From positions 1 to 53,003 of the forward strand of contig JAZODN010000025.1 in assembly GCA_045597045.1 (NCBI GenBank): a DNA stretch of 53,003 bases. Direction: 5' to 3'. A program made the position numbers and the translations under genes. A model generated the notes under the pieces. That model did no database searches and was not told the DNA's origin. It saw only the letters and a list, made by a program, of their open reading frames with translations. Below, piece after piece: positions 3 to 19,031 of this stretch. Position 1 is the first letter of the stretch. Each line of letters begins with the position of its first letter. This stretch comes from Acutalibacteraceae bacterium (GTDB lineage: Bacteria > Bacillota > Clostridia > Oscillospirales > Acutalibacteraceae).

Positions 3-65
3 ACAACCACCACAACCACTACAACCACTACAACCACTACAACCACTACAACCACTACAACCACC
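3..65 (+). repeat. 9-bp tandem repeat (ACAACCACT), 7 units (5 perfect, 2 ACAACCACC variants), in-frame and coding for poly-Thr
   Basis: Direct reading: perfect units at 12-20, 21-29, 30-38, 39-47 and 48-56; variants at 3-11 and 57-65. The array may continue upstream of the window. Confidence 0.9.
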
Positions 66-686: not shown

Positions 687-903
687 ACAGTCAAGCAGGT
701 TTTCGATGACCGTTTTTTGCGCATGTGTTTACACTTTTTGCGATTTTTGCCGCGGAAGAATTGACATTTTTTTCAGTGTGTGTTTTACTGAAATATAGCA
801 GGATGGCGTGAAGTCGTTGTGGATCTTTCGCCACGGATACCGTCGGTGCTCGCCATGGTGATTGCACTTTAACATTTTACATCTTGCATAAGGAGTGGAA
901 ACT

Positions 904-2385
904 ATGCTGCAAAAAGTGTCGCCCGAATCGGTGGGGATTTCGTCCGAAAAGGTGCTGAAATTTATTAAAACATTAGAAAAGAACCACTTGCATACCCACA
1001 GCTTGTTGCTCACGCGGGGGGATGCGGTCTTCTGCGAAAAATACTACGCCCCGTTTGATGAGACATTCAAACACCGCATGTATTCGGTGTCAAAAAGTTT
1101 TGTGTCGGTGGCGATCGGTCTGCTGATTGAAGACGGCAAGCTGTCGCTCGAGGATAAGTTTGTTTCCTTTTTTCCCGACTACACTGAGGGTATGAATGAC
1201 CCGTGGTTCGAGGAAATGACTGTGCGCGATGCGCTTATGATGTGCACCTGCACGCCGTCTATGCCCGATTGGTTTGCAAGCGGCACGAAAGACCGCACGG
1301 AGATCTACTTTGAGGGCCATGCCACCATGATTCCCGGCACACGGTTCCAGTATGACAGCCCGGGTTCGTATATGCTCGGTGTGATTGTGGAAACCATCAC
1401 GGGCAAGTCGTTCTTAGAGTTTATGAAGGAACGGTTTTTAAATGCCATCGGTTTTTCTCCCGACGCCTATTGCATTGAGTGCCCCGGTGGCCACTCCTTT
1501 GCCGATTCGGGTGTGATGTGCACCGCACGTGATCTGTGGCGGTTTGCCCGTTTTGTGATGAATGGCGGCACATGGGAAGGTGTGCGGTATATGAACGAGG
1601 CATATCTTCGAGAAGCTGTTGCTTTTCAAGTGGCCAACAATGCCCGTGATATGGACCATTACGGCGGTTATGGCTACGGCTATCAGATTTGGAAGGCGCC
1701 GCGTGACGGTTTTGCTTTCATTGGCATGGGGGATCAGTTTGCCATTTGCGACCCTGCCACCGATACCATTTTGATCATTAATTCCGACAACCAGGGGGAT
1801 CCGTTTTCCCGATCGGTACTGTATCAATCGCTGTATAGCCTGATTGTGGAGGAAATGGGGGAACCGCTGCCGGAAAACGAGGAGGCACTCGCAGCGCTTC
1901 GTGCGCACGAGCAAGGCGATACGCTGTGCGCACTGTCATGCGGCGTTGGCAGTGCATTTGCCAACGAACTTTCGGGGCGTACCTATCGTCTCGAAAAAAA
2001 CAATATGCAGATCTCATGGTTTCGCTTTGAGTTTGAGGGAGACGGCGGCGTGTTGCATTACGAAAACGCACAGGGCGTGAAAGCGCTGCCGTTTGGCATC
2101 GGTCACAACGTGTTTGGCAAATTTCCGCAAGAGGGTTATGCCGATTTGGTGGCGACGGTGGGTGAGCCGGGCCACTGTTACGATTGTGCCGTATCGGCCC
2201 AATGGCAAGAGGAACTGAAATTGCATTTGTGTGTGCAGATTATCGACAAATATTTCGGCAATTGTAACATGGTGTTCTCTTTCAAGGATCGCCGCGTGGT
2301 AGTCATGATGCAAAAGGTCGCGGAAGCGTTCTTAAATGAGTATCAAGGCACGGCGTTTGGCGAGTGGGCGGAAGAATTGGCATAG
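904..2385 (+). CDS. serine hydrolase, beta-lactamase (class C)/PBP-related family
   Basis: SxxK motif in MYSVSKSFVSVAIGLLIEDGKL. AAGGAG (891-896) lies 7 nt before ATG 904, preferred over the listed GTG 895. An intrinsic terminator follows. Confidence 0.75.
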   Translation: MLQKVSPESVGISSEKVLKFIKTLEKNHLHTHSLLLTRGDAVFCEKYYAPFDETFKHRMYSVSKSFVSVAIGLLIEDGKLSLEDKFVSFFPDYTEGMNDPWFEEMTVRDALMMCTCTPSMPDWFASGTKDRTEIYFEGHATMIPGTRFQYDSPGSYMLGVIVETITGKSFLEFMKERFLNAIGFSPDAYCIECPGGHSFADSGVMCTARDLWRFARFVMNGGTWEGVRYMNEAYLREAVAFQVANNARDMDHYGGYGYGYQIWKAPRDGFAFIGMGDQFAICDPATDTILIINSDNQGDPFSRSVLYQSLYSLIVEEMGEPLPENEEALAALRAHEQGDTLCALSCGVGSAFANELSGRTYRLEKNNMQISWFRFEFEGDGGVLHYENAQGVKALPFGIGHNVFGKFPQEGYADLVATVGEPGHCYDCAVSAQWQEELKLHLCVQIIDKYFGNCNMVFSFKDRRVVVMMQKVAEAFLNEYQGTAFGEWAEELA

Positions 2386-2514: not shown

Positions 2515-3351
2515 ATGAGAACTGTGAAGATCGTTGCCGATTCCGCTGCCAATGTTATTGCATTGGAACGTGTGGATTTTGCGGTCGTACCGCTGAAAAT
2601 TGTGACCGAGACGGCAGAGTTCGTGGATGCGCCGTCGTTGGATGTGGCGGATATGACGGCCTATTTTGACCGTTACAAAGGCACTTCTAAGACGTCTTGT
2701 CCCAATCCGGCAGATTTTTTAGAGGCGTTTGGTGATGCCGAGGATGTGTTTTGTGTGACGATCACAAGCGGTCTTTCGGGCAGCTACAACGCCGCGTGCG
2801 TGGCCAAAACCATGTATGAAGCGGAACACGTCGGCGCGCGTGTGTGGTTGATCGATACGCTTTCGGCCGGTGCGGAAATGCAACTGATCGTAGAACGCTT
2901 GGCACATTTGGTCGAAAGCGGTCGCTCGTATGAAGACATCATCACAGAGATTACCGCTTATCAAAAACGGACGGGGCTGCTCTTTATGTTAGGCTCGCTT
3001 AAAAATTTTGCGGCAAACGGGCGCGTACCGCTGGCGGTTGCCAAGGCGGCCGGTATTTTGGGGCTTCGTGTGGTGGGGAAGGCGAGCGAAAAAGGCACGC
3101 TGGAACCGTTGGATAAGTGCCGCGGCGAACAGCGTGCCGTTGAGCGCATACTGATGCATCTGCAAGAGGAGGGGTTTGCCGGCGGTAAGGTGTGTGTGGC
3201 GCACAATACCAATGCAGCGGCGGCCAGAGCCTTGCGAGCTTGTATATTGGACATATGGCCGACGGCCGAGGTGGCGGTTGTGGCTTGCCGAGGTTTGTGC
3301 AGCTACTACGCCGAAAAAGGCGGCATGCTTGTGGGATTTGAAAAAGCATAA
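2515..3351 (+). CDS. DegV family (fatty-acid-binding) protein
   Basis: 278 aa with the typical DegV N-terminus (MRTVKIVADSAANV...) and TSGLSGSYN motif region. Confidence 0.8.
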   Translation: MRTVKIVADSAANVIALERVDFAVVPLKIVTETAEFVDAPSLDVADMTAYFDRYKGTSKTSCPNPADFLEAFGDAEDVFCVTITSGLSGSYNAACVAKTMYEAEHVGARVWLIDTLSAGAEMQLIVERLAHLVESGRSYEDIITEITAYQKRTGLLFMLGSLKNFAANGRVPLAVAKAAGILGLRVVGKASEKGTLEPLDKCRGEQRAVERILMHLQEEGFAGGKVCVAHNTNAAAARALRACILDIWPTAEVAVVACRGLCSYYAEKGGMLVGFEKA

Positions 3352-3356
3352 AAGAA

Positions 3357-3395
3357 CGGCGAAGAAGAAACATCGGTTCTTCTTCGCCGCTTTTT
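3357..3395. terminator. bidirectional intrinsic terminator between convergent genes
   Basis: GGCGAAGAAGAA-loop-TTCTTCTTCGCC (12-bp stem) flanked by an A-run on one side and a T-run on the other. It sits between degV (+) and the P-II-like gene (-). Confidence 0.85.
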
Positions 3396-3396
3396 G

Positions 3397-4080
3397 TTAC
3401 AGACCCATCACTTCATCGACCGGCAGTGAGACGACCAGTCCTTTTGCTTTGCTGTGCATGCCGTAGGCTTCGCTGACGGCTTTCATGATGGCGAGTTTTT
3501 CTTCGTGATCCGCCAAAATCAGCACGATTTCTTTTTCTTCCTGCACGCTGAGACCCCAAAAACCCGTGGCGTCCCCGTTTTCGATACCGCGGCTGTGAAT
3601 GATCGTGCCGCCGCCGGCACCTGCTGCACGCGCAGTGTTCATCACGTCGCCGCCAAAACCGCGATCCACGGTGGCTGCAATCAACACGTATTTGGTATCG
3701 CCCATGGTTATTTCACCCTTTCTGCTGTCGCCTCTTTCGTAATGTTCGGCTGCGCTATCCATCATGCGCAGCATCAGGTTGCTGGCTCCGGTCAACGGGA
3801 TCGTGAAGGCGATGCCGCTGTTCACCGCATCTAACCGCAAACGCGAATGCAGCGTTTGCAGCATTTGTCGGCCGAGCGCGCGCGGCACGTAACTTATCAG
3901 CACGCTTTTATCCACGCTGCCCAAGCCCAGTGTGTCCATAATTTCGCTGGACGCCGTGCCTTCCGCATTCATTCGAAACTGCAGCGGCAGGTTGCTTTGC
4001 AAAAACATATCGGCGGCTTTTTCTGCCAATTTCGGAGTAGCGATCAAAATCAACATTTGATATACTTTCTGTTCACTCAT
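3397..4080 (-). CDS. tandem P-II-like signal-transduction protein (two P-II-type domains)
   Basis: 227 aa, about twice the P-II length. The second half (KYVLIAATVDRGFGGDVMNTARAAGAGGGTIIHSRG...EKEIVLILA) looks P-II-like. AAGGAGG RBS overlaps the stop of the upstream gene. Confidence 0.6.
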   Translation of the reverse strand: MSEQKVYQMLILIATPKLAEKAADMFLQSNLPLQFRMNAEGTASSEIMDTLGLGSVDKSVLISYVPRALGRQMLQTLHSRLRLDAVNSGIAFTIPLTGASNLMLRMMDSAAEHYERGDSRKGEITMGDTKYVLIAATVDRGFGGDVMNTARAAGAGGGTIIHSRGIENGDATGFWGLSVQEEKEIVLILADHEEKLAIMKAVSEAYGMHSKAKGLVVSLPVDEVMGL

Positions 4081-4092
4081 GCAGCCGCCTCC

Positions 4093-5613
4093 TTATTCCA
4101 AGTCGATAATGTCGTCGCTGTCGGCGGTGAGGCCGGGATGCAGCAACGCTGCTTTTTCGAGTTTTTTCGTTTTGACACGATACACAATGCCCATGATCTG
4201 AATGGCAATCAGGGGGGTGAGTGCAACCAGCGCTACCACGCCGAAGGCATCCGTCATCAGGTTGCCGCCAAGTGCTTGGCAGGTACCGATGCTTAACGGC
4301 AGCAAGAAGGTCGAGGTCATCGGGCCGCTGGCCACACCGCCTGAGTCGAAGGCGATACCCACAAAAATTTTCGGTACAAACAGCGACATTGCAAGGGCAA
4401 TGACGTAGCCGGGTACCAAGATCCAATAAATCGGAATGTTCAAGAGAATACGCAACATGGCAAGACCGATACTGACAGCCACGCCGATGGACATGCTGCG
4501 GTTCATCACTTTCACCGAGATCGCACCGTCGGTTACGTTTTCCACTTGGTGGTTGAGCACCTGAATGGCAGGCTCGGCTTTCACAATGTAATAACCGATC
4601 AGCATGCCGATGGGGATCAAAATCCAGTTGTAGCGGAGAGAAGCCAACTCCGCACCGAGGAAAGCGCCTACGGGTGCAAACCCCACGTTCACGCCGCACA
4701 AAAACAGCACCAGACCGATGAGGGTATAGATCATGCCAACCGTAATGCGCTTAACCTGCCTCTTTTGATAACGGTGGGTGAGTAACTGAAACAGCACAAA
4801 AACCACCGCGATGGGAAGCAAAGAGATCAGCACTTCACCGCCGTATGTCGGCAGTTCATAGGCAAACACACGCACCACGTCACGGGTGGTGAGCACCTTG
4901 GCAATTTCCCCGAGAGAATACGCAGCCTCGGTGGGTTTGAAGAAACAGCCGAGAAGCAGTACCGCCAAAATGGGGCCGACACTGGAAAGAGCCACCAATC
5001 CAAAACTGTCACTGGCGGCATCTTTGCCGCTGCGCACCGATGCTAAACCGATACCCAATGCCATGATAAACGGCACGGTCATCGGGCCGGTGGTCACGCC
5101 GCCGGAATCAAAAGCCACCGCTAAAAAATCGCGCGGAACAAAGAAGGAGAGGATAATCAGCAGTGTGTATAACACGATCAGCAATCGGGACAGATCGATA
5201 TGATAACGGATACGCACAATCGCCACCGCCAAAAACAGACCAACGCCAAAGGCAACCGTTAAGATCAGCGTTAAGTCAGGAACAGAGGGCACTTGATGTG
5301 CCAACACCTGCAGATCGGGTTCCGATACGGTGATAATTGCACCCATGATAAACCCGATCAGCAGCACCGCCAAAACCTTTTTCGTTTTGGAGATCTGCAC
5401 GCCGACACCTTCGCCGATGGGGGTCATGGCCATTTCGGCACCGAGTTGGAAAAAGCCCATGCCGAAGATCAGCAGTACGGCACCTGCCAAAAACATCACC
5501 ATGGTACCCAGAGAAATCGGCACCAGGAAAACGCTGATCAGTAGCACGATACCGGTGATCGGCAGCACCGCCGAAAGCGATTCCAATGTTTTTTCTCGCA
5601 GTTTAGGATTCAA
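4093..5613 (-). CDS. polytopic membrane protein, DUF1538-type, internally duplicated
   Basis: 506 aa, highly hydrophobic. The motif occurs twice: FDSGGVTTGPMTVPFIMALGIG and FDSGGVASGPMTSTFLLPLSIG. TTG start at 5613 with a GGAAAGG RBS. The family name is from memory of the DSGG(V)xxGP(M)T signature. Confidence 0.6.
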   Translation of the reverse strand: MNPKLREKTLESLSAVLPITGIVLLISVFLVPISLGTMVMFLAGAVLLIFGMGFFQLGAEMAMTPIGEGVGVQISKTKKVLAVLLIGFIMGAIITVSEPDLQVLAHQVPSVPDLTLILTVAFGVGLFLAVAIVRIRYHIDLSRLLIVLYTLLIILSFFVPRDFLAVAFDSGGVTTGPMTVPFIMALGIGLASVRSGKDAASDSFGLVALSSVGPILAVLLLGCFFKPTEAAYSLGEIAKVLTTRDVVRVFAYELPTYGGEVLISLLPIAVVFVLFQLLTHRYQKRQVKRITVGMIYTLIGLVLFLCGVNVGFAPVGAFLGAELASLRYNWILIPIGMLIGYYIVKAEPAIQVLNHQVENVTDGAISVKVMNRSMSIGVAVSIGLAMLRILLNIPIYWILVPGYVIALAMSLFVPKIFVGIAFDSGGVASGPMTSTFLLPLSIGTCQALGGNLMTDAFGVVALVALTPLIAIQIMGIVYRVKTKKLEKAALLHPGLTADSDDIIDLE

Positions 5614-5652: not shown

Positions 5653-6747
5653 TTATTTCACCAATACGGTTTTGATGTTCTTGCCCGCGTTGGCATCGGC
5701 AAATGCTTCGTTCACGTGTGCGATGGGGTAGGGTGTGGCCAATGCGGCGATCGTCGGTTGCAGGTCGGGATTCTCTGCTAAAAACGTTACGTAGTCGTGT
5801 ACGTCGGGGAAAGAATACTGAGAAGAGCCGAGAATTTGCAGTGCTTTAAAGGTGATGAGCTGCGGCTGGATGGCCACAGAACCGGATTCGCTGTATTGAC
5901 CGGGGATGAGATACACACCACGGTTGCGCAGGATGGCAATGCCCTGTGCCACGGCAGCCGGCGCGCCCGAAGCCTCAAAGCACAGATCCACACCGAGTCC
6001 GTTGTTTTCGGCCTGCAAGGCGGCGGTTACGGCGGGTTCGCCTTCTGCTTTTAGACTGAACACACGGTCGGCCCCCAATAGACGGGCAGCTTCGTCGCGC
6101 TTGGTGTTAGCTCCCGTTGTGATAGCATACACCTTTTCAATGCCCAAACGCTTCAAATACATCACCGCGAACAGGCCCACAGGGCCGAGACCCTGCACCA
6201 CCGCCACCTTCATTTGGGAGAGGGCGATGTTGGCACGCTCTGCCAAGCGGAAGGCATGGATGGCGGTAGGGCCGGGGCAGGCAAAGATAGCGGCTACTGT
6301 GGGATCCACCCCCACAGGCACCTTGATAAGGTTGGTGAGGGGAGTGTAGTTCACTTCGGTATATCCGCCGTAAAGATGGGGTGCCACTTCAATGTCGCCG
6401 CCGTTGGTGAGACCCATGTTCACACAGTTGGCATCGTCACCGCTTTGGCAAAGTGCACATTCGCCGCACGGCACGGCAATGTCGGCAATCACTGCATCCC
6501 CTTTGGCTAAGTCGAACTTGGCAGCTTCGACGGCATCTGCAGCCGTGATGCGCCCCACGAATTCATGGCCGATGATGGCGGGGGCGCTTTCTTCCAATTT
6601 GCCGTTGTGAATGTGCAGGTCGGTTCCGCACACGCCGCTGGCAATCAGTTCCAGCTGTGCGTAGCCGGATGGTGGCGGTGTCACGGGAAATTCGCGCACC
6701 TCAAAGGGGTGTTCTGCCCCCATAAAAACAGCCGCTTTGGCTTTCAT
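5653..6747 (-). CDS. zinc-dependent alcohol dehydrogenase (MDR family)
   Basis: Catalytic Zn ligands in SGVCGTDLH and GHEFVG. Structural Zn motif CGECALCQSGDDANC. GxGxxG in VVQGLGPVGL. Confidence 0.85.
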   Translation of the reverse strand: MKAKAAVFMGAEHPFEVREFPVTPPPSGYAQLELIASGVCGTDLHIHNGKLEESAPAIIGHEFVGRITAADAVEAAKFDLAKGDAVIADIAVPCGECALCQSGDDANCVNMGLTNGGDIEVAPHLYGGYTEVNYTPLTNLIKVPVGVDPTVAAIFACPGPTAIHAFRLAERANIALSQMKVAVVQGLGPVGLFAVMYLKRLGIEKVYAITTGANTKRDEAARLLGADRVFSLKAEGEPAVTAALQAENNGLGVDLCFEASGAPAAVAQGIAILRNRGVYLIPGQYSESGSVAIQPQLITFKALQILGSSQYSFPDVHDYVTFLAENPDLQPTIAALATPYPIAHVNEAFADANAGKNIKTVLVK

Positions 6748-6756
6748 AACAAATTC

Positions 6757-7521
6757 CTACCCTTCTATTTTTACTTGCACATACTGTGCATATAGCGCTG
6801 CTAACGCCGCACGCTGATCAGCGGTGGGCGGCATGTGGTTTTTGTAAGCATAGTCCAATCCCATGGCCTCGTATTTTGCATTGCCCAAACGGTGGAAGGG
6901 CAGCAGATCGGCTTCCTTTATATTCAGCGAACGCAACAACTTGCCGATTGCCCGAATTGAATCTTCGTCGGTGTTAAAATCGGGGATCAGCGGAATGCGC
7001 ACGGTAAAAGGCACGCCGTCTCGTGCTAAGGAGGCAAGATTGGCCGTTACAAGATCCAAGTCGCCGCCGATGGCGCGATATTTCGATGCGTCGGCGGTTT
7101 TAAGATCGAATAGATAGCCGTTTACCACGGGATTCAGGGTCTCAAAGGCGGTGTACGGCACACAGCCGGCGGTATCAATCAGCACGGAAATGCCATGCGT
7201 TTTCAATAATCCGGCCAATTGCGCGGCTTCATTGGCTTGCAGCATAACTTCGCCGCCGGAAAAAGTGACGCCGCCGCCGCTTTGGTCAAAAAACGGGCGG
7301 TCTTCCAACAGTTCCGGCAACAGTTCTTCGGAAGAAACGCACACGCCGCGCGTTTCGGTCTTACCGTTGCGATAGTGCAGCGCGGTGGTTTCGGCTGCCA
7401 AGTTTTCGGGATTGTGACACCATGGGCAAAAGAGGTGGCAGCCTTTGAAAAACACGGTTGTGCGGATGCCCGGGCCGTCGCCAACCGAAAAATGTTGAAT
7501 GTTGGATATGTTCAGCAGCAT
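6757..7521 (-). CDS. glycyl-radical enzyme activating protein (radical SAM, PflA-like minimal type)
   Basis: CX3CX2C in FFKGCHLFCPWCHNPE (C28, C32, C35). 254 aa with only five Cys in total and no CxxCxxCxxxC ferredoxin insert. Starts 4 nt after the GRE stop, with an AGGGGTGAG RBS. Confidence 0.85.
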   Translation of the reverse strand: MLLNISNIQHFSVGDGPGIRTTVFFKGCHLFCPWCHNPENLAAETTALHYRNGKTETRGVCVSSEELLPELLEDRPFFDQSGGGVTFSGGEVMLQANEAAQLAGLLKTHGISVLIDTAGCVPYTAFETLNPVVNGYLFDLKTADASKYRAIGGDLDLVTANLASLARDGVPFTVRIPLIPDFNTDEDSIRAIGKLLRSLNIKEADLLPFHRLGNAKYEAMGLDYAYKNHMPPTADQRAALAALYAQYVQVKIEG

Positions 7522-7525
7522 ACAC

Positions 7526-9637
7526 TCACCCCTGTTGGGTGCGGTTGAGAATATCTAACTGTACCGCGCGGTCAAGTGTTACATAAAAGGCCGAAAAGCC
7601 CGAAACACGCACCACCAAACTACCGTATTTTTCGGGATGCTCCATTGCATCCAACAGCGTTTCGCGTGAGGTGGCGTTGATCTGAATCTGCTGTCCACCC
7701 ATTTTAAAATAGGTACGAATGAGTGCTTGCAGTTTTGGGCGGTTTTCAGGGGTGAACATGGCCGGAGAGTATTTTTGATTGACCACACTTCCGCAGGCGA
7801 CTTGCGTGTAATCGGGTTTCGATACGCTGAGCAGTGTAGCGGTTGCACCGCGCACGTCGCGACCGTAGGAGGGGGAGGCGGCGTCTGACAGTGGTTCACC
7901 GCGTTTTCGTCCATCCGGTGTAGCGTTGATAATGCGTCCGGCAGAAATGTTGCTGACGTTGGCCGCAACGTCGATGTAAATGCCGCCGCCGTCACGGGTT
8001 TTATACTGTTTAAAGCAGGAGGCCATGTATTTTACGAACCAAACGGCGTATTTATCTGCAAAATCGTCGTTGTTGCCGTATTTGGGGGCAGCCAACAGTT
8101 TTTCCCGCAGCGCTTCGTATCCTTCGAAATTACTGTTCAGTGCAGCCTTCAATTCGCTGAGCGTGGCGGCTTTATCAATAAAAATTACCTTCTCGATAGC
8201 GGCAAGCGAATCGGTGATGGTACCGATTCCCATGATCGCCACACCGTGCACCGAAGGATATATGCTGCCGCCGTTGTTGATATCTAAGCCACGTCCGATG
8301 CAATCGTAGCAGAAGCAAGAAAGAAACGGCTCGGGGAAATTCTCTTGGCAGATCGCGTTGTTGCGGTTTTTAAACCATGCGTAATACTCTGCCGCACCAT
8401 GCGCCAGCTGTGCTTCAAAACGGGACATGAAATCGCCCATGGTGTGAATACTGTCTACGTCGCCGGTATCTATGCCGATTGAACGGTTGGTTTCGCTGCG
8501 CCCGTTATTAAAGAGATAGTCGAAATAGCGCGGTGTGTCCAGTCGCCCGTCGGACCACGGCGGTTGCATACCTGTAATAAAGTTTTCAATGCAACCGACC
8601 ATGCAGAAGTTGTAAATATCCTCTTCGCGGTAACCGTATTCCCGCAGCGCCGGAATCATCACCGCATCGTTCATTAAAGCCGGATAGCCGAGCCCCGTGC
8701 CGATCACCTGCAGGCATAAGTCCAGGAAATCGTCAGGCGTGTTTTCGGCGGTGCGCAGTGACAGGTTTGGACCCGGTATGTTGCAGTTTCCCACCGCACG
8801 AACGATACAGTAGGAGAGAGGGTTTACCGCGCAGGAACCATCGGGATTGGTACCGCCGATACAGATGTTCACAACATCGTCGCGCAGGCGAATAAACACG
8901 TTTTCAAGCAACTCGATCACGCGCTCATCGGTGATGCGGCCACTTTCGATATCCGCTTTATAGAACGGGTATAAGTACTGATCCAGGCGACCGAGCGCCA
9001 TGGCATAGCGCCCTTCCATCAAGAAAGCGGTGTGGCAAAACCAAACAAGCTGAAGGGCTTCGGCAAAGGTCTTGGGTGCACCGCGCAACAGTGCCTCACA
9101 GTTTTGAAGAATAAAGTCTACCCGTTGGCGGTCATAGCCATTTTTTTCACGGCATGCTTTGGCTGCCTCAACATAGTTTTCAATCATGCGGTAAAACCCC
9201 TCCAAGGCGCGTTTCATACCTTGCAGCGTTTCGCACCTTTTGGGGTCGTTTTGCCACGTAATGAGCGAACGGTCGATTTCCAACAGCAGGCCGGGCAGGC
9301 CTACCGTGAGAATATGGTCATAATTCGGAGCGTAGTGGTCTTTGTTGGTAATGAATTCACGTTCGCCGAATTGTGCAACCGTCGCCTGGGCATATGCCAG
9401 CGTCATTTCGTCGGCCGTGGTATACAGCGCGCAGCGGTTGCCCGTGATCAACTCGGCAGGGAGAATTTGCGGTTGTGTTTCGGTAAATAGTGCATAAATG
9501 CCGTTGGCACGTAAAGGGACGGGGGCAGCGGCTAAATCTTTTTTATATCCCAGGAAACGGAAATAGTAGGGAGCGTAAGTCCCGTGGCGGTCGGTAAAAT
9601 AGTCGGTGCTCATTTGGTCAAACAGCTTCATATCCAT
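7526..9637 (-). CDS. glycyl radical enzyme, PFL2/dehydratase-lyase-like, short form (703 aa), substrate unknown
   Basis: Glycyl-radical fingerprint VVRVSGFSAFY (Gly680, codon 7598-7600). Thiyl loop MVGCIENF (Cys349 codon 8591-8593, Glu351) instead of the Cys-Cys of pyruvate formate-lyase. Confidence 0.85.
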   Translation of the reverse strand: MDMKLFDQMSTDYFTDRHGTYAPYYFRFLGYKKDLAAAPVPLRANGIYALFTETQPQILPAELITGNRCALYTTADEMTLAYAQATVAQFGEREFITNKDHYAPNYDHILTVGLPGLLLEIDRSLITWQNDPKRCETLQGMKRALEGFYRMIENYVEAAKACREKNGYDRQRVDFILQNCEALLRGAPKTFAEALQLVWFCHTAFLMEGRYAMALGRLDQYLYPFYKADIESGRITDERVIELLENVFIRLRDDVVNICIGGTNPDGSCAVNPLSYCIVRAVGNCNIPGPNLSLRTAENTPDDFLDLCLQVIGTGLGYPALMNDAVMIPALREYGYREEDIYNFCMVGCIENFITGMQPPWSDGRLDTPRYFDYLFNNGRSETNRSIGIDTGDVDSIHTMGDFMSRFEAQLAHGAAEYYAWFKNRNNAICQENFPEPFLSCFCYDCIGRGLDINNGGSIYPSVHGVAIMGIGTITDSLAAIEKVIFIDKAATLSELKAALNSNFEGYEALREKLLAAPKYGNNDDFADKYAVWFVKYMASCFKQYKTRDGGGIYIDVAANVSNISAGRIINATPDGRKRGEPLSDAASPSYGRDVRGATATLLSVSKPDYTQVACGSVVNQKYSPAMFTPENRPKLQALIRTYFKMGGQQIQINATSRETLLDAMEHPEKYGSLVVRVSGFSAFYVTLDRAVQLDILNRTQQG

Positions 9638-9648
9638 TTTCTCCTTGC

Positions 9649-10266
9649 TTAGGATTCTTCGTTTTTATACCGCAGTTTCGACCAAAGCAGAACAATAATC
9701 TGACCGGGTACGCCCAGCGCAAATACCGTCCATACCGTAAAGCCGGAAAAGAGCAACGTGATAAACAGCGACCCCAACACCGACCACATCAAAAGTGAGA
9801 TGATCAGAAAGTTGCGACGCAGGTTGAACCAAAGAGAATTAAAGATGAGCCAGACCACCAGGGTGGCGGGAATCGCATACAAGAACGGCAGCAGCGGCCC
9901 CCAGGAGGTTTTGGCAAGCAGATCCAAAATGATGTATAGTAAAATGGCGAGCAGCCACACCAATACCACACACATCCCCGTGATAAAACCGCGGTTTTGA
10001 CGGCGGCGACGGCTGGTGCGTTTGGCACGAAGGAACACGCTGTCGTTTTCGGGCCGTACCAAATAGTCGAGCGATACTTCAAACAAATCGGCGATGGCGA
10101 TCAGCACGGCAATATCGGGCAGCGATTCGCCGCGTTCCCATTTAGAGATCGCTTTGTCGGAATAATTCAATTTTTCCGCCAATTCCAACTGCGTCATTTC
10201 GCGTGCTTGTCGCAATGAAGCGATGTTTTTGGCGACGATGGCTTTAATATCTTGCAAAAGAAGCAC
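9649..10266 (-). CDS. XRE-family HTH transcriptional regulator with C-terminal multi-pass membrane domain
   Basis: HTH region MTQLELAEKLNYSDKAISKWERGESLPDIAVLIAIADLF, followed by about 4 hydrophobic helices. The listed GTG 10266 abuts the RBS; TTG 10257 (9 nt after GGAAGGAG) is the more likely start. The stop lies 11 nt before the GRE start. Confidence 0.75.
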   Translation of the reverse strand: MLLLQDIKAIVAKNIASLRQAREMTQLELAEKLNYSDKAISKWERGESLPDIAVLIAIADLFEVSLDYLVRPENDSVFLRAKRTSRRRRQNRGFITGMCVVLVWLLAILLYIILDLLAKTSWGPLLPFLYAIPATLVVWLIFNSLWFNLRRNFLIISLLMWSVLGSLFITLLFSGFTVWTVFALGVPGQIIVLLWSKLRYKNEES

Positions 10267-10280
10267 ACTCCTTCCAATAA

Positions 10281-10364
10281 TCTACACCCATAATACCACA
10301 TCTGCGCAAAAAAATCAACAAATATAATGTAAATAATAGTGTTCTGATTTCAATTCTACACCCA
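10281..10364. repeat. two copies of a 10-bp direct repeat TCTACACCCA (10281-10290 and 10355-10364); candidate operator
   Basis: Exact 10-mer seen twice, 74 bp apart, in the divergent XRE/degV intergenic region. Copy 1 abuts the -10 and start site of the XRE promoter; copy 2 lies upstream of its -35. Confidence 0.45.
10290..10318 (-). promoter_or_regulatory. sigma-A-type promoter for the XRE-GRE operon
   Basis: On the minus strand: TTGATT (10318-10313), 17-nt spacer, TGgTATTAT extended -10 (10295-10290). Confidence 0.5.
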
Positions 10365-10512: not shown

Positions 10513-11376
10513 ATGCGTCCTTACATTATTTATACCGATTCGGCTTGTGATATGCTGCCCGAAACGTTGGAGTCGTGGGGGGTTAAACGGTGTGATCTGT
10601 CCTTTCAGTTCGACGGTGACGATACGGTATACACGAACTTTGAATTAACGCCGGCTGCCTTTTATCAGCGTATGCGCGATGGCGGCGTGGCCAAAACCTC
10701 GGCGGTCAACAGCGAAACCTTCCGCACGCTGTTTGAGGAGGAACTGAAAAACGGAAACGACGTGCTGTATATCGGTTTTTCTTCGGGGCTCAGCACCACC
10801 TTTAACTGTGCACGCATGGCGGCGGCGGAACTGGAGGAAGAGTATGCGGAGCAGCGCGTGCGTGCAGTGGATACGCGCTCGGCATCGGCCGGCTTTGGCA
10901 TGCTTCTCTATCTGGCGGTACAAAAGAAGGCAGAGGGTGCTTCTCTGGATGAGGTGGCAGATTACGTGGAAGCACAGCGTGCACATCAATGCCATTGGTT
11001 TACGGTGGACGATCTGGTGTATCTTAAACGCGGTGGACGGGTAAGTCCTGCGGTGGCGTTGATCGGTGGCGTACTCGGTATTAAGCCGGTGTTGAATATG
11101 GATGACGAAGGTCACTTGATCAGCCGTTCGAAGGTGCGCGGACGCAAAGCGGCCCTCAAGGCGTTGGCCGATAAATACGGCGAGTTAGCTATCAACCGTG
11201 AAGGCCCGGTATTTATTTCCCACGGCGACTGTGCCGAAGATGCCGCGCTGTTGGCAGATATGTTGAAGGAAACCTATGGGGTAGCGGTCGATATGACGGT
11301 CAATGTCGGACCTGTTATCGGTGCTCATTCCGGTCCGGGCACCATGGCTCTTTTCTTTATCGGAAAGGAGCGCTAA
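10513..11376 (+). CDS. DegV family (fatty-acid-binding) protein, second paralog
   Basis: 287 aa: MRPYIIYTDSACDM..., FSSGLSTTF, GPVIGAHSGPG. Only distantly similar to the 2515-3351 copy. Confidence 0.8.
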   Translation: MRPYIIYTDSACDMLPETLESWGVKRCDLSFQFDGDDTVYTNFELTPAAFYQRMRDGGVAKTSAVNSETFRTLFEEELKNGNDVLYIGFSSGLSTTFNCARMAAAELEEEYAEQRVRAVDTRSASAGFGMLLYLAVQKKAEGASLDEVADYVEAQRAHQCHWFTVDDLVYLKRGGRVSPAVALIGGVLGIKPVLNMDDEGHLISRSKVRGRKAALKALADKYGELAINREGPVFISHGDCAEDAALLADMLKETYGVAVDMTVNVGPVIGAHSGPGTMALFFIGKER

Positions 11377-14708: not shown

Positions 14709-15285
14709 AGAATTGCACGGTATCGACAATGTGCTTTGCCATGCGATAATATCCTTCTTTTCCGAAATGCAATCCGTCAAAGGGTTGCATTTCGTATTCG
14801 TTTTCGGCACTGAAAACACCGTCAAACGTGACCAGCCGCAGTCCTTTTTCAGCGGCAAATCGTGTCAAAAATGCTACTGCCTTTTTGACACGCGGTGCAC
14901 AGCCGAAATTGACGCGTTCGGGAATTTCGGTGGCATGCGGCGGAGCGATTATGATGATTTCGCTTTGCGGAGCATCGGCAAGGCACCGTGCCACCAGTTC
15001 AGCATAATCGTGATTGCCTTGCACGTCCTCATCCGGATCCAATGTGCCGTTGGTACCAAGAAAGATTAACACATAATCGGCGCCGTTTACAGAAATTTCT
15101 CCCCGTTTGTAATAATCCCAATAGGCCGAAACGGTGTAGCCGCATTTTCCGCCGTTCACCACGGTGGCTCCTGTCAGTTGCGATAAAAAATATGGGTAAT
15201 TTTCGGGGTGGATATTGGGCACGCCACTTTGGTGCCAACCGTAATCTCCCTCGGTCAAACTGTCACCTAAACATACGATTTTCAT
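14707..15285 (-). CDS. SGNH/GDSL-family hydrolase (esterase)
   Basis: MKIVCLGDSLTEGDYG (GDS block) and a C-terminal DGLHFG block. ATG 15285 forms an ATGA overlap with the stop of the upstream rhamnosidase gene, with AGGAGG upstream. The 314-aa listed ORF is an N-terminal over-extension. Confidence 0.8.
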   Translation of the reverse strand: MKIVCLGDSLTEGDYGWHQSGVPNIHPENYPYFLSQLTGATVVNGGKCGYTVSAYWDYYKRGEISVNGADYVLIFLGTNGTLDPDEDVQGNHDYAELVARCLADAPQSEIIIIAPPHATEIPERVNFGCAPRVKKAVAFLTRFAAEKGLRLVTFDGVFSAENEYEMQPFDGLHFGKEGYYRMAKHIVDTVQF

Positions 15286-17492
15286 GGTTTTTCCTCCTGT
15301 ATCAAATGGTATGTACCTGTGGTAATCATGGTTGTGTCGCTGCTGTTTTCCAATCGCCAATCGTTTTTTAAGACTAACGTAGCGGTAGCGGTGTCGGGTA
15401 TGGTGAGCGAAAGCAGGATGCCGTTGCCGTCCCGTTCCCATTTGATGGCGATTCGTCCGCAGGGGGCATCGTAAAACGCTTCGGCGAATGTCAACGTCGA
15501 AAGAAAGGCGGGGGAGACGGTTACGGCAGTAATATCCGTACCGGTGGGGTTGAACTGTAATCCGGCGATACGTTTTATGAAGAAGGCACTGACATCGCCC
15601 CAAAACATATGATTGAGCGAATCTTGCGGTTCTATGGTGAAACGTTCCCACAAGGCGGTAGCGCCTTGTGACAGAATATAGCCATAGGATGGGAAGGCTG
15701 GATCGGCGATCAAATGATAGGCGAGATCGGCATGTCCGTTTTCTGCAAGAAGATGGAACAGTACCCGTCCGCCAAGAACACCAACATCCATACGGTCGCC
15801 CGCCTCGTGAATATAGGTGAGCAGATGCTGTAATGCGTTTGGTTTTTCGGTATTTTCAAACATGCCATAATACAATGCCATTGCTTGTGACGTTTGGCAT
15901 TGACCGTGTACGACATCGTGGTGGATCAAATGTGTGCGGAATGCAGCGGTGAGTTCCTGCGCTAATGCTTCGGCAACTTTCCACCCGTCGTGACCAATTG
16001 CTTTCAGCAAAAATGCCGCTTTGTCCGCAATATCTTTGGCAACGATGGTGTCGGTCACGATCAAGGGGGCTTTTGGCGGAATATCCCCCACGTGACACCA
16101 ATCCCCCAGACCAAACGCGCAAAGTCCGTGTTCGTCGCGTTTTGAAGCGAGATAGTACAGATACTTCACAATCGCATCGGCAGATTCTTCGATCATTGTC
16201 GTGTCGCCACGATAGACATAGACGTAATAGGGGAGATACACCAACGCGCAATCCCATGCAGGACCGTTGCCCCAATGGAATCCCCATCCGCCTGTTGGTA
16301 CGATTCCGGGAAGCGCCCCATCCGCACGTTGCGCCTTCACAACGCTGTGTATCCATTGGCGGTAACACATCTCGGGAGTGAAGTTCAATAGCATGCATTC
16401 ACATGCCAAGGCCGCATCGGCCATCCACCCGTTCTTTTCACGCTGAGGGCAATCGTTCGGGAAATGCCACATGTTGGCAAGTCCGCTGCGACGGGTAATG
16501 GTTTGTATGGCATTTAGGGTGTTGTCGGAACACCGAAAATCGCCACGCGGTTGCAGGTCGGAGTGGTATACACATTGTGTGAGCAACGAGGGCGTTGCTT
16601 GTTCTTCGGTGATGCCAAATACGGCGACATAGCGGAACCCGTGGTAGGTGAACGACGGGGTGTAGGTTTCTGCTTCGCCGCCTTTGCAGATGTAAATGTC
16701 GGTGTGCACCAAATGTTGCACATCTTCAAAAGTGGGGGAATCGTATGCACACCACAATGCTTGTACGTTCAGTTCGCCATTTTTCAGGAATTCGGCATGT
16801 TGCATGGTGATGCGCTGACCTGTATGCCCTTGGACGGACAAACGTACAAGCCCTGCATCAATAATGCCAAAATCGTAAAGAAAACCGCCCTTATATGGGG
16901 TGATTGCTACAGGGGCACGTTCTTCGTGACAACAGATCGGCGGAACGGCCGCATGTGCAAGTGTGCCTTTCGGAGCAGTGGCCTCTAAAGCATGGCGCCA
17001 TTCACCGTCATCAAAATCGACCGCGTTCCAGTTTGCGATCTCGCGGGTGGCATCGTAATGTTCGCCCAGACGGTAATCGTCAAAAAGAATAGGGGACGGT
17101 GCGGTTATGAAGGTGGTGTCGCTTTCCAATATGCCATGGATGGTCAGGGAAAATGAGGGGGCGGCACGAAAAGATGCTTTGTCAAAATCCCACACGTAAC
17201 CGCCCGGATTGTTTTGAAATCCGTTGCCGAGCAGAATGCCGATGACGTTATCGCCGCTTTGTAACGATATTTCGTATTCGTCGTAGTAGACCAGATGATC
17301 GGGGTTGGCGATATACGGTGAAAGCAGTCCTTTTGTGTATTCCTGTCCGTTTACCCATACGCGGTAAAAACCACCGGTTGCAATGCGCATGGTACCCAAT
17401 TTTGCGTGTGAAACCGTGAACCGTTTGCGGAAATAGGGGGCGGGGATGTGGTTTTCAAGCGTGGTGTATTGCGCGGTTGCTTGGATGAACAT
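15282..17492 (-). CDS. alpha-L-rhamnosidase-like glycoside hydrolase (GH78-type), no signal peptide
   Basis: 736 aa. N-terminus APYFRKRFTV...RIATGGFYRVWVNGQ is typical of the rhamnosidase N-domain; the six-hairpin-like catalytic part includes WHFPNDCPQREKNGWMAD. Confidence 0.7.
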   Translation of the reverse strand: MFIQATAQYTTLENHIPAPYFRKRFTVSHAKLGTMRIATGGFYRVWVNGQEYTKGLLSPYIANPDHLVYYDEYEISLQSGDNVIGILLGNGFQNNPGGYVWDFDKASFRAAPSFSLTIHGILESDTTFITAPSPILFDDYRLGEHYDATREIANWNAVDFDDGEWRHALEATAPKGTLAHAAVPPICCHEERAPVAITPYKGGFLYDFGIIDAGLVRLSVQGHTGQRITMQHAEFLKNGELNVQALWCAYDSPTFEDVQHLVHTDIYICKGGEAETYTPSFTYHGFRYVAVFGITEEQATPSLLTQCVYHSDLQPRGDFRCSDNTLNAIQTITRRSGLANMWHFPNDCPQREKNGWMADAALACECMLLNFTPEMCYRQWIHSVVKAQRADGALPGIVPTGGWGFHWGNGPAWDCALVYLPYYVYVYRGDTTMIEESADAIVKYLYYLASKRDEHGLCAFGLGDWCHVGDIPPKAPLIVTDTIVAKDIADKAAFLLKAIGHDGWKVAEALAQELTAAFRTHLIHHDVVHGQCQTSQAMALYYGMFENTEKPNALQHLLTYIHEAGDRMDVGVLGGRVLFHLLAENGHADLAYHLIADPAFPSYGYILSQGATALWERFTIEPQDSLNHMFWGDVSAFFIKRIAGLQFNPTGTDITAVTVSPAFLSTLTFAEAFYDAPCGRIAIKWERDGNGILLSLTIPDTATATLVLKNDWRLENSSDTTMITTGTYHLIQEEKP

Positions 17493-17504
17493 AGCGCACC
17501 TCCT

Positions 17505-19031
17505 TCAAAAACAAAGTGTGATACGTCCATTTTCCGAACGTATGCACTGTGAGGAAATAAATTGCCCTTCTGTAGCGGTCAGTGAGTATACCATGCCGTT
17601 GTAATTAAGGGTTAACTTTGTTTCTTCTTGTTGCTCTATCGTGGGGAAATGGTCGTCCGTTTTGCCGTAGTGATAGGTGAGGGTGAAGGGCTTTTGAGCG
17701 GCGATGCTCAGCGAGCGGGGGCGAAGTGTAACGGAAAAAGTGCCGTAATCCAACGTGGCGTTTTCGCCATCTTCTTGAAATAATGGGGCTTTGCACAGGG
17801 GCGGTGTGTCATCGGTAAAGGCGAAGCGACCGCCGGCGATTGTTCCGTTGCCGCTATGGCGAAATCCGTCAAATACAGGGAGCGTTTCATAGGTTGCGCT
17901 GTTTTCGGCGCAACACACATCTTCGTATGGGTCGGGTACATCCGCCCCAAACAGATGCAGGTCGCGTATCCGAAACTCGTTGGCATCGCCGTACAAATTG
18001 ATACGGTAGGTGTCGCTGGAGTACCATATGGAATGTTTCCGTTCATCGTCGTATGCCGTATGGACAGCAATGGCCGAAGCGGGGGTGTGATCGAATTGAT
18101 GCTTATACCAACGTCCTGTTTCGCCGAGCGGTTCTACGGTGATTTTTCCTTCGCTCTGCAATTGCGCAAACAGCGGGAATTGATATAGAATGCCGTCACG
18201 CATCAAGTCCCAGCCAAAACTGTTTTCTTGTCCCGCTTGTGCGTATCCAAACGAAAGACACTCGCCGTTGAAGTTTTCGCGCATATACCAATCTACCCAG
18301 TGAGGATCGGCACCGCCACCGTCAGGGTAGGATGGTTCTAATGTGAACACCTTTTGCGAAGGGGTGGTTTGTTGCGTGGCTTCCATTCCCGCGTCGTATT
18401 GATACACAGGGTCGCTTCCGAGCATACGAAACAACGGCGCTGAAAGGGCATTCTCTTTCGTTTGTGCAGGGAAGAAAACGTTGTTACGCGCGGGGTAGTA
18501 TCCTTGCCCGTAATAGCCGCCCCACAGGGTGTAACCATCGGTGCCGAACTGTTCTTTGCAGTTGCACATAGCATCGATTTCATAATGGTCGCATACGTAG
18601 CAAGCAGTGTGGCTGTCGAAAAACCACGAACCGAAAACACGTGGATAATAGCCGAAAACCGCGCGGAAGCGTTCGAACAAAACGTCGACCAATTGTTCCC
18701 GCTGTGCTTTTGTATATCCCACAGGAAATCCGCAGTGACAGTGCCAGTCCCACGCAAAGCGTCCTGTCCACGGTATACCACACGCTTTGGCTTGCGGTTC
18801 CACGATCTCGTGCCACACACCAAACTCGAACTGCATGGGGTCCAGTGCACGTAATAGGGTGGTATATGTGGGATCTAACAGTGTGTCGTACTGTAACAAG
18901 AAGGTGCCGCGCAGACGATGTTGTTGCATCAAGCGGATCTGTTCTTTGAGCGGGGTCAAAAGGTCGCGCTCCATGCGCGGTTCCACACCGCGCAGAAAGT
19001 TTACAATGTTGACAATCTGTCTTTTTTTCAA
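17505..19031 (-). CDS. uncharacterised 508-aa cytoplasmic protein in the rhamnosidase locus
   Basis: TTG 19031 is preceded by AAAGGAGG at 7 nt; the listed start at 19085 has no RBS. Rich in conserved-looking aromatic/Cys patches (WDWHCHCGFPVGY, GYTLWGGYYGQGYYP). No family recognised. Confidence 0.6.
   Translation of the reverse strand: MKKRQIVNIVNFLRGVEPRMERDLLTPLKEQIRLMQQHRLRGTFLLQYDTLLDPTYTTLLRALDPMQFEFGVWHEIVEPQAKACGIPWTGRFAWDWHCHCGFPVGYTKAQREQLVDVLFERFRAVFGYYPRVFGSWFFDSHTACYVCDHYEIDAMCNCKEQFGTDGYTLWGGYYGQGYYPARNNVFFPAQTKENALSAPLFRMLGSDPVYQYDAGMEATQQTTPSQKVFTLEPSYPDGGGADPHWVDWYMRENFNGECLSFGYAQAGQENSFGWDLMRDGILYQFPLFAQLQSEGKITVEPLGETGRWYKHQFDHTPASAIAVHTAYDDERKHSIWYSSDTYRINLYGDANEFRIRDLHLFGADVPDPYEDVCCAENSATYETLPVFDGFRHSGNGTIAGGRFAFTDDTPPLCKAPLFQEDGENATLDYGTFSVTLRPRSLSIAAQKPFTLTYHYGKTDDHFPTIEQQEETKLTLNYNGMVYSLTATEGQFISSQCIRSENGRITLCF

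Follow-up and report, generated by a model that had tools for sequence, protein, structure and literature searches.

Glycyl radical enzymes (GREs) with a Cys-x-Glu (CXE) active site have been characterised in several forms. A superfamily review of June 2026 lists glycerol dehydratase (GD), 1,2-propanediol dehydratase (PD), HpfG, HypD, HpyG, HpzG, CutC, IslA/IseG and HpsG as well as the isomerases HplG, YbiW and PflD, and describes whole GRE clades as still unassigned (PMC13450708). The CXE motif is common to all GRE eliminases and is also found in isomerases; its Glu hydrogen-bonds the substrate in all characterised enzymes of both groups and is the base deprotonating the substrate hydroxyl in most proposed mechanisms, HypD excepted (PMC13450708). 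Here, a GRE gene of Acutalibacteraceae bacterium (assembly GCA_045597045.1) was analysed, which is located at 7526-9637 on the minus strand of contig JAZODN010000025.1. The whole stretch of this contig that was analysed, 53,003 nt, is referred to as the window. By profile and motif evidence, the encoded enzyme is placed in an uncharacterised compact subfamily of pyruvate formate-lyase (PFL)-like GREs with a CXE active site; it is not a new kind of system.

The reading frame comprises 703 aa from the first ATG (9637) and exists as described in the original prediction, which had left the strand unstated. Pfam recognises a PFL-like domain (PF02901, E=4.6e-122, residues 95-564) and a Gly_radical domain (PF01228, E=4e-27, residues 584-686), values which exclude a chance match. 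Translation and Pfam also confirm both catalytic motifs proposed before: RVSGFSAFY (residues 677-685, codons 7583-7609, minus strand) with Gly680 (codon 7598-7600), and the Cys loop GCIE (residues 348-351, codons 8585-8596, minus strand) with the thiyl Cys349 and the CXE Glu351, the loop being aligned with GCVE of GD (Cys433/Glu435), PD and CutC. R677, V678, S679 and G680 are invariant in alignment A1, and Cys349, which pairs with GD Cys433 and the catalytic Cys of CutC, is invariant in alignments A1 and A2. With a PFL-like barrel, a C-terminal glycine-radical domain carrying RVxG, the Cys of the Cys loop and a nearby activase, the window GRE has the sequence-defined features of the superfamily.

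Upstream of the gene, an AAGGAG Shine-Dalgarno sequence is separated by 3 nt from the first ATG and by 9 nt from a second one (9631). Owing to this spacing, to the lengths of the homologue clusters (700-702 aa in 112 of 120) and to the MKLFE-like beginning of their majority, the true start is probably Met3 (ATG 9631), which gives 701 aa; thus, the ribosome-binding site claimed before is present, but it more likely serves the second ATG. An upstream start had been denied on the grounds that 11 nt separate the stop codon of the preceding XRE gene (9649-9651) from the ATG at 9637. This is correct, and a longer product is impossible, since an in-frame stop (9665-9667) is located 10 codons upstream of this ATG with no ATG, GTG or TTG between them. 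Length and start are kept over 30 aligned homologues (65-85% identity), in which about 300 positions are invariant. The short length characterises the family and does not arise from an artefact at the locus.

No curated family accepts the window GRE in an HMM search, which had been suggested as a check, and every NCBIfam equivalog model scores far below its cut-off. TIGR01774 (PFL2-3 subfamily, PFL2/glycerol dehydratase) reaches 393.5 bits (cut-off 678.2) and is aligned from model position 135. Lower scores were obtained with the models for HypD (NF043068, 361 bits, cut-off 1100), CutC (TIGR04394, 341 bits, cut-off 1050), HpsG (NF048011, 328 bits, cut-off 1000) and HpfG (NF048009, 309 bits, cut-off 1000). 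The PFL model TIGR01255 matches the C-terminal third only (112.7 bits, cut-off 994) and the loop GCIE has a single Cys, hence an identity as PFL was rejected. The closest solved proteins by phmmer are CutC (331 bits), PD (9RCO, 326 bits) and GD (1R8W, 324 bits), whereby the alignments begin only at about query residue 95. Sequence and Foldseek fold searches of the PDB gave about 25-28% identity to solved GREs. Membership in a characterised clade is ruled out by these identities together with the sub-cut-off NCBIfam scores, in agreement with the original prediction, and a CXE GRE of about 700 aa with a Zn-dependent alcohol dehydrogenase (ADH) as partner is undescribed in full-text literature searches and in the June 2026 superfamily review (PMC13450708).

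In public databases, homologues are labelled 'DUF3029 family protein', 'formate C-acetyltransferase' or 'hypothetical'. The first of these labels is misleading for the homologues P0012 and P0085, being based on a sub-threshold partial match. For the window GRE, the YjjI/DUF3029 models give 21.7 bits (PF11230, gathering threshold 23) and 23.9 bits (TIGR04040, cut-off 498), over residues 175-343 only. A tblastn search of plasmid records yielded no close homologue (best hit ≤34% identity); the best match, rejected as a relative, is a YbiW-like GRE of C. butyricum accompanied by fructose-6-phosphate aldolase.

An AlphaFold2 (AF2) model was computed from a 30-sequence alignment, possibly too shallow an input, and has a mean predicted local distance difference test (pLDDT) of 73.7 and a pTM of 0.71. 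Foldseek aligned it with GD, CutC, PD, HypD, HplG and YbiW at a TMq of about 0.8 and 24-28% identity. The structural comparison proposed earlier thereby gave GD (1r8w), CutC and PD (9rco/5i2a) as best matches. GD of C. butyricum (DhaB1, PDB 1R8W/1R9D), the best one, has the same 10-stranded barrel fold and shares the Cys loop G-C-[VI]-E and the Gly loop RVxG. Residues 440-446 of the GRE form a further motif, S-C-F-C-x-D-C (C441, C443 and C446; codons of residues 440-445 at 8302-8319, minus strand), which does not vary within the close 700-aa family; of its Cys residues, only the last is kept in the distant short clade and in GD. The pLDDT of this region is below 40.

The size difference to GD (27% identity) can be assigned to two regions. 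By phmmer, query residues 96 and 701 are matched with GD 159 and GD 784, respectively; about 63 residues are absent from the N-terminal dimer-interface helices and about 20 internally, about 17 of the latter at the cap-helix/β3 segment (GD 319-324 and 330-340). The original prediction had placed the difference in the N-terminal region, which is true for about 63 of the roughly 85 absent residues, but not for the internal deletion. According to the review, the N-terminal helices are the conserved GRE dimer interface, and the cap helix, a short helix between β2 and β3, is present throughout the GREs, where it lines the substrate channel (PMC13450708). The deleted stretch lies between a long helix and strand β3 and includes GD Tyr339; its HypD counterpart holds Ser334 of the cap helix and Asp339 and Phe340 of β3. 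In the AF2 model, helix 237-251 passes straight into strand 256-261 (pLDDT 75-91), and the β2-β3 linker from D219 to G261 has 42 aa vs. about 59 in the GD/CutC type. Among the 132 nearest representatives at 50% identity, 68 likewise have linkers of only 40-50 residues from the DQY to the GG anchor. As about half of the nearest representative clusters have short linkers, a 'deleted cap helix' was rejected as a unique trait. Similarly, the enzyme had been called unusually short. It is shorter than every characterised PFL-like GRE, but not within uncharacterised sequence space, where full-length GREs among the 150 nearest 50%-identity representatives form a continuum from about 690 to about 940 aa.

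The active site was compared with GD by pairwise alignment, as proposed before. Cys433/Glu435 of GD correspond to Cys349/Glu351, His164 to His101 and His446/Asp447 to Ser362/Asp363. Tyr211/Ala212 stand in place of His281/Ser282, so that the 'GHS' strand of GD and PD reads 'YA', Ala558/Asn560 in place of Tyr640/Ser642, and Tyr339 is deleted. In line with the GD structure papers, His281/Ser282, Tyr339, Asp447 and Tyr640 are taken as pocket positions of the GD type. In the window GRE, four GD-type positions are replaced; His101 and Asp363 are kept and the remaining tested positions are changed, which does not give a GD-type pocket. The differences at Tyr211/Ala212, Ala558 and the Tyr339 segment are shared throughout the short clade. 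For PD (5I2A/5I2G, 9RCO), which shares the CXE motif and the His, the same pocket differences were found. CutC also shares CXE, and its Asp216 corresponds to His101. Since the residues with which GD contacts the C2 and C3 hydroxyls are absent or have given way to small ones, the substrate is probably bulkier and less polar than glycerol. The signature H-[Y/G]-A-C-E-[S/A]-D-A-N was recovered in about 14 related clusters, in a few of them with single substitutions, and is missing from the other 117 representatives examined. Proteins of 690-726 aa make up 13 of these clusters. The other one is represented by P0137, a 937-aa GRE extended N-terminally by about 250 aa, which carries the signature except for His at position 212 (Ala in the clade); the short clade is, consequently, not uniformly short.

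The cognate radical-SAM activating enzyme (6757-7521, minus strand, 254 aa) begins 4 nt after the GRE stop codon and has the CX3CX2C motif at C28, C32 and C35. Only two further cysteines are present, and the ferredoxin-like insert of 8 Cys is absent. The review names the activases of PFL and of ribonucleotide reductase as the only ones consisting of the radical-SAM domain alone, the ferredoxin-like 8-Cys domain being typical of the others, and calls the role of this auxiliary domain an open question (PMC13450708). The window activase can be aligned over its whole length with E. coli PflA (245 aa; 3C8F/3CB8) and shares its single-domain, single-cluster architecture. Profile scores, however, place it in the PFLE_PFLC group, which comprises the activases of eliminases and decarboxylases: TIGR02494 gives 228 bits (cut-off 174) in two stretches which skip the insert, whereas the PflA model remains below its cut-off with 149 bits. 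A ferredoxin-like domain of 8 Cys is a typical, not a strictly defining, trait of eliminase activases, and the window activase does not have it. The insert is absent from 68 of 71 activases of the close family and is retained in 11 of 23 from the distant short clade. Given that roughly half of the activases in the distant short clade still have at least 8 extra Cys, the insert appears to have been lost secondarily in the window-type activase.

Relatives of the GRE were found by a genome scan in 328 species-level genomes. Taxonomy, sources and loci were described for the best 80 of these, and open reading frames were clustered over 78 loci (close loci). All best 80 are uncultured Clostridia assemblies (Oscillospiraceae, Acutalibacteraceae, 'Eubacteriales', Christensenellaceae and Lachnospiraceae); the nearest GREs, with 85-86% identity, belong to metagenome-assembled genomes of Oscillospiraceae and Acutalibacteraceae. 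Where sources are named, these are gut or faeces of sheep, goat, buffalo, yak, deer, horse, rabbit and chicken, and one record has a human-gut assembly label (UMGS). Among the close loci, a cassette is conserved which consists of a divergent AraC regulator followed by GRE, 254-aa activase and Zn-ADH, often with an SGNH/CE6-like esterase thereafter. The activase is directly downstream of the GRE in 69 loci and the divergent AraC regulator upstream of it in 51. The Zn-ADH follows the activase in at least 53 loci, and since in 9 more a spurious antisense ORF masks its position, it is probably present in 62. After the ADH, a CE6/SASA-type acetyl-esterase was found in 22 loci and an Eis-like GNAT in about 4-7 (both with Pfam and PDB support); two other SGNH esterase types are located beside the ADH in 5 loci. 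No conserved transporter or further catabolic gene was found beside the cassette among the 78 loci. In the window, the ADH (5653-6747, minus strand, 364 aa) is a medium-chain enzyme resembling polyol dehydrogenases, as judged from Pfam and NCBIfam, and is the conserved partner of the GRE. Its NCBIfam matches (Tdh, idonate dehydrogenase, IolM, HpnZ) are all below cut-off, the top one being HpnZ with 147 bits (cut-off 328).

A metagenome scan with distant short-clade representatives gave 80 loci, of which 77 carry a clustered GRE (distant loci). At least 28 of these 77 have the ADH and 17 an AraC regulator; SASA occurs in 8, and 2 contain a different esterase of the GDSH type within the operon. 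The linkage to ADH is kept in loci whose GRE is 39-46% identical to the distant short-clade query P0125, and none of these loci holds a close relative of the window GRE. Deducing the substrate from the wider neighbourhood was tried and given up, because the flanks (SDR, MATE, GFO/IDH, cysteine synthase, ABC and others) differ from locus to locus. On some contigs from human and animal metagenomes, one identical cassette, AraC-GRE-AE-ADH-SASA (AE, activating enzyme), occurs with different left flanks beside TnpV, Phd/ParE toxin-antitoxin and NikA/relaxase genes. This occurrence of one cassette in different flanks with mobile-element genes is consistent with a self-contained, horizontally mobile module. 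Large genes (914-1023 aa) with a Pfam domain of eukaryotic-type RNA-dependent RNA polymerases (PF05183) were observed beside the cassette at 15755-18826 in locus L001 and in loci L003, L004 and L005 (15693-18437); their context with TnpV, Phd/ParE and NikA/relaxase looks like a mobile element. Two short-GRE copies within a few kb are present in L031, L032 and L057, and are convergent in the latter two.

From the observed domain identity, motifs, operon structure, conservation and co-occurrence, we infer the radical chemistry, the direction of the ADH reaction and the nature of the substrate. The reading considered probable, with clear reservations, is that of a CXE-type radical 1,2-eliminase acting on a hydroxylated substrate larger than glycerol, the linked ADH reducing the carbonyl product. 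The activase would place the radical on Gly680, from where it would pass to Cys349 as a thiyl radical, which would take a hydrogen from the carbinol carbon of the substrate. Glu351 would deprotonate the hydroxyl at this carbon, and the group at the neighbouring carbon, most likely OH protonated via His101, would depart to leave an aldehyde or ketone. For GD, His164 is described as a pocket residue that protonates the leaving OH (PMC13450708). The co-transcribed Zn-ADH would then reduce the carbonyl, with the net conversion of substrate and NAD(P)H to deoxy-alcohol and H2O serving as an electron sink. The 1,3-propanediol operon dhaB1-dhaB2-dhaT of C. butyricum follows the same GRE-activase-dehydrogenase logic. 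The conservation pattern further suggests a small, membrane-permeant hydroxylated compound as substrate, since no transporter is conserved, and perhaps its release from an acetyl ester inside the cell, since cytoplasmic SGNH/CE6-type acetyl-esterases recur beside the cassette.

Several points weigh against this reading. The identity of the substrate is not deducible from sequence. The ADH resembles polyol and secondary-alcohol dehydrogenases and might instead work ahead of the GRE and produce its carbinol substrate. An esterase is found in a minority of loci only. In the AF2 model, the pLDDT falls below 50 in both catalytic loops (Cys and Gly) as well as in residues 426-464 and 586-621, and the statements on the pocket rest on the pairwise alignment to GD. 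Finally, a His at the position of GD His164 is near-universal in PFL2-like GREs and does not discriminate between substrates.

An alternative which we consider unlikely is a GRE isomerase like YbiW, PflD and HplG. A ring O or N of the same molecule would then be the leaving group, and the ring-opened keto-isomer would be reduced by the polyol-type Zn-ADH. The original prediction had read the Cys loop as the arrangement of eliminases, as opposed to the Cys-Cys of PFL. CXE with a single Cys is indeed present, but as isomerases carry the identical motif (PMC13450708), CXE alone is no proof of eliminase chemistry. The nearest ADH families act on secondary alcohols or ketones of polyols, and the structures of YbiW and PflD fit the AF2 model about as well as those of eliminases (TMq 0.80-0.82), YbiW, PflD and HplG having about 24-27% identity and the same general fold. 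However, the known sugar isomerases use phosphorylated sugars, and their loci encode sugar-phosphate enzymes with phosphotransferase system, kinase or aldolase genes, none of which is conserved at the cassette loci.

A C-N, C-S or C-P lyase is rather improbable. Such an enzyme (CutC-like, IslA/HpsG-like or a hypothetical hydroxyalkyl-phosphonate or carnitine lyase) would release amine, sulfite or phosphite, the carbonyl product being reduced by the ADH, or the ADH would make the carbinol substrate. In favour of such a lyase, the GRE step of the taurine and isethionate pathways comes after that of a reductase. The CXE chemistry would be the same (PMC13450708), and the top NCBIfam match of the ADH is the 'phosphonate-catabolism-associated' HpnZ. 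Its score is, however, far under the cut-off, and the models for CutC, HpsG and HpfG reach about one third of theirs for the GRE. The CutC Asp216 position is His101, and the approximate equivalent of the sulfonate-binding IslA Arg678 and GD Tyr640, mapped by offset arithmetic only, is Ala558 instead of the expected Arg, for which reason a sulfonate lyase was rejected. Neither sulfite reductase nor trimethylamine (TMA)-related or phosphite genes are conserved near the cassette in close and distant loci, and cut or microcompartment genes are absent.

With its gene order equal to dhaB1-dhaB2-dhaT and with GD and PD as best sequence and structural matches, the system might be taken for a divergent GD or PD orthologue outside a microcompartment, which would convert glycerol or propanediol to an aldehyde, with the ADH then forming 1,3-propanediol or 1-propanol. 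AraC-family regulators such as PocR sense propanediol, and a GH78 rhamnosidase is encoded 5.6 kb away in the window; rhamnose fermentation leads to 1,2-propanediol, a known GRE substrate. We nevertheless regard this as very improbable. Identity is only about 27%, the 'GHS' strand, Tyr339 segment and Tyr640 are changed as described above, and the rhamnosidase is not conserved at other loci. In comparison with the GD system, the window activase has no ferredoxin-like domain and the dehydrogenase is a Zn-dependent medium-chain enzyme, not an Fe-ADH. PD dehydratases are usually found in microcompartment loci, and shell genes are absent from both close and distant window-type loci. In addition, GREs usually have narrow, tailored pockets (PMC13450708). 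A truncated, decaying or mis-called gene without function, for which nothing but the short length speaks, is virtually excluded by the conserved length, start and invariant positions in 30 homologues, the occurrence in 328 genomes and the conserved activase partner.

Radical 1,2-elimination followed by carbonyl reduction is preferred among these explanations. A bolder version, to be regarded as speculative and unlikely in its entirety, would be a 'minimal' GRE system with a truncated N-terminal dimerisation region, no cap helix and hence a more open barrel end, and an activase of the eliminase lineage with a single [4Fe-4S] cluster, whereby several presumed constants of the superfamily would be broken. 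It might catalyse a reaction new to GREs on a bulkier substrate, e.g. the radical deoxygenation or the cleavage of a deacetylated polyol or glycoside of plant or host origin, and form a horizontally mobile electron-sink module in uncultured gut Oscillospirales.

In the window, the operon on the minus strand comprises the genes for XRE, GRE, activase, Zn-ADH, a DUF1538 protein and a 227-aa protein, with gaps of 11, 4, 9, 39 and 12 nt. The first gene (9649-10266, minus strand) encodes an XRE-type HTH regulator of 205 aa with a hydrophobic C-terminal half, recognised by Pfam, and stands in place of the divergent AraC regulator of most relatives. A promoter-like site (10290-10318, minus strand) upstream of it consists of TTGATT, a 17-nt spacer and TATTAT, with TG before the second hexamer, and is a consensus match only. 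The DUF1538 membrane protein (4093-5613, minus strand, 506 aa; Pfam and NCBIfam) is a fused UmpA/UmpB-like duplication and was found beside the GRE operon in the window and in loci L006 and L008 only. We regard it as an addition to the operon that is specific to this lineage, and possibly a transporter. No Pfam or NCBIfam family was matched by the 227-aa protein of the last gene (3397-4080, minus strand), which may form a lineage-specific transporter pair with the DUF1538 protein. Among the clustered loci, the XRE, DUF1538 and 227-aa genes are restricted to the closest relatives of the window. A strong hairpin of 15 pairs with a T run, resembling an intrinsic terminator (3355-3391, minus strand) begins 5 nt past the stop codon of the last gene.

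Other genes of the window were noted as well. The GH78 alpha-L-rhamnosidase (15282-17492, minus strand) has four Pfam rhamnosidase domains. A protein of 496 aa with a beta-lactamase fold (895-2385, plus strand) has '3-succinylated cholic acid synthase' as best NCBIfam match, with 148.8 bits against a cut-off of 800. Two DegV-family (fatty-acid-binding, FakB-like) paralogues (2515-3351 and 10513-11376, both plus strand) are located one on either side of the operon.

GRE eliminases of gut anaerobes shape host-relevant metabolites, as in the formation of TMA from choline and of H2S from isethionate and in the use of hydroxyproline by C. difficile. The compact GRE clade described here is widespread, with relatives in 328 species-level genomes, the best 80 of which are from uncultured Clostridia, mostly of livestock and human guts. 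Its simple conserved context of regulator, GRE, activase, ADH and sometimes esterase makes reconstitution and substrate screening tractable. The short N-terminus, the shortened cap/β3 segment and the single-domain activase are departures from the typical GRE architecture. The first of these bears on the question whether catalysis needs the canonical dimer, and the last offers an unusual case in nature for asking what most GRE activases need their auxiliary ferredoxin-like domain for. An uncharacterised GRE clade alone is unsurprising to specialists; it is the distribution, the minimal mobile cassette and the ferredoxin-less activase of the eliminase lineage which make this system a worthwhile target for discovery.

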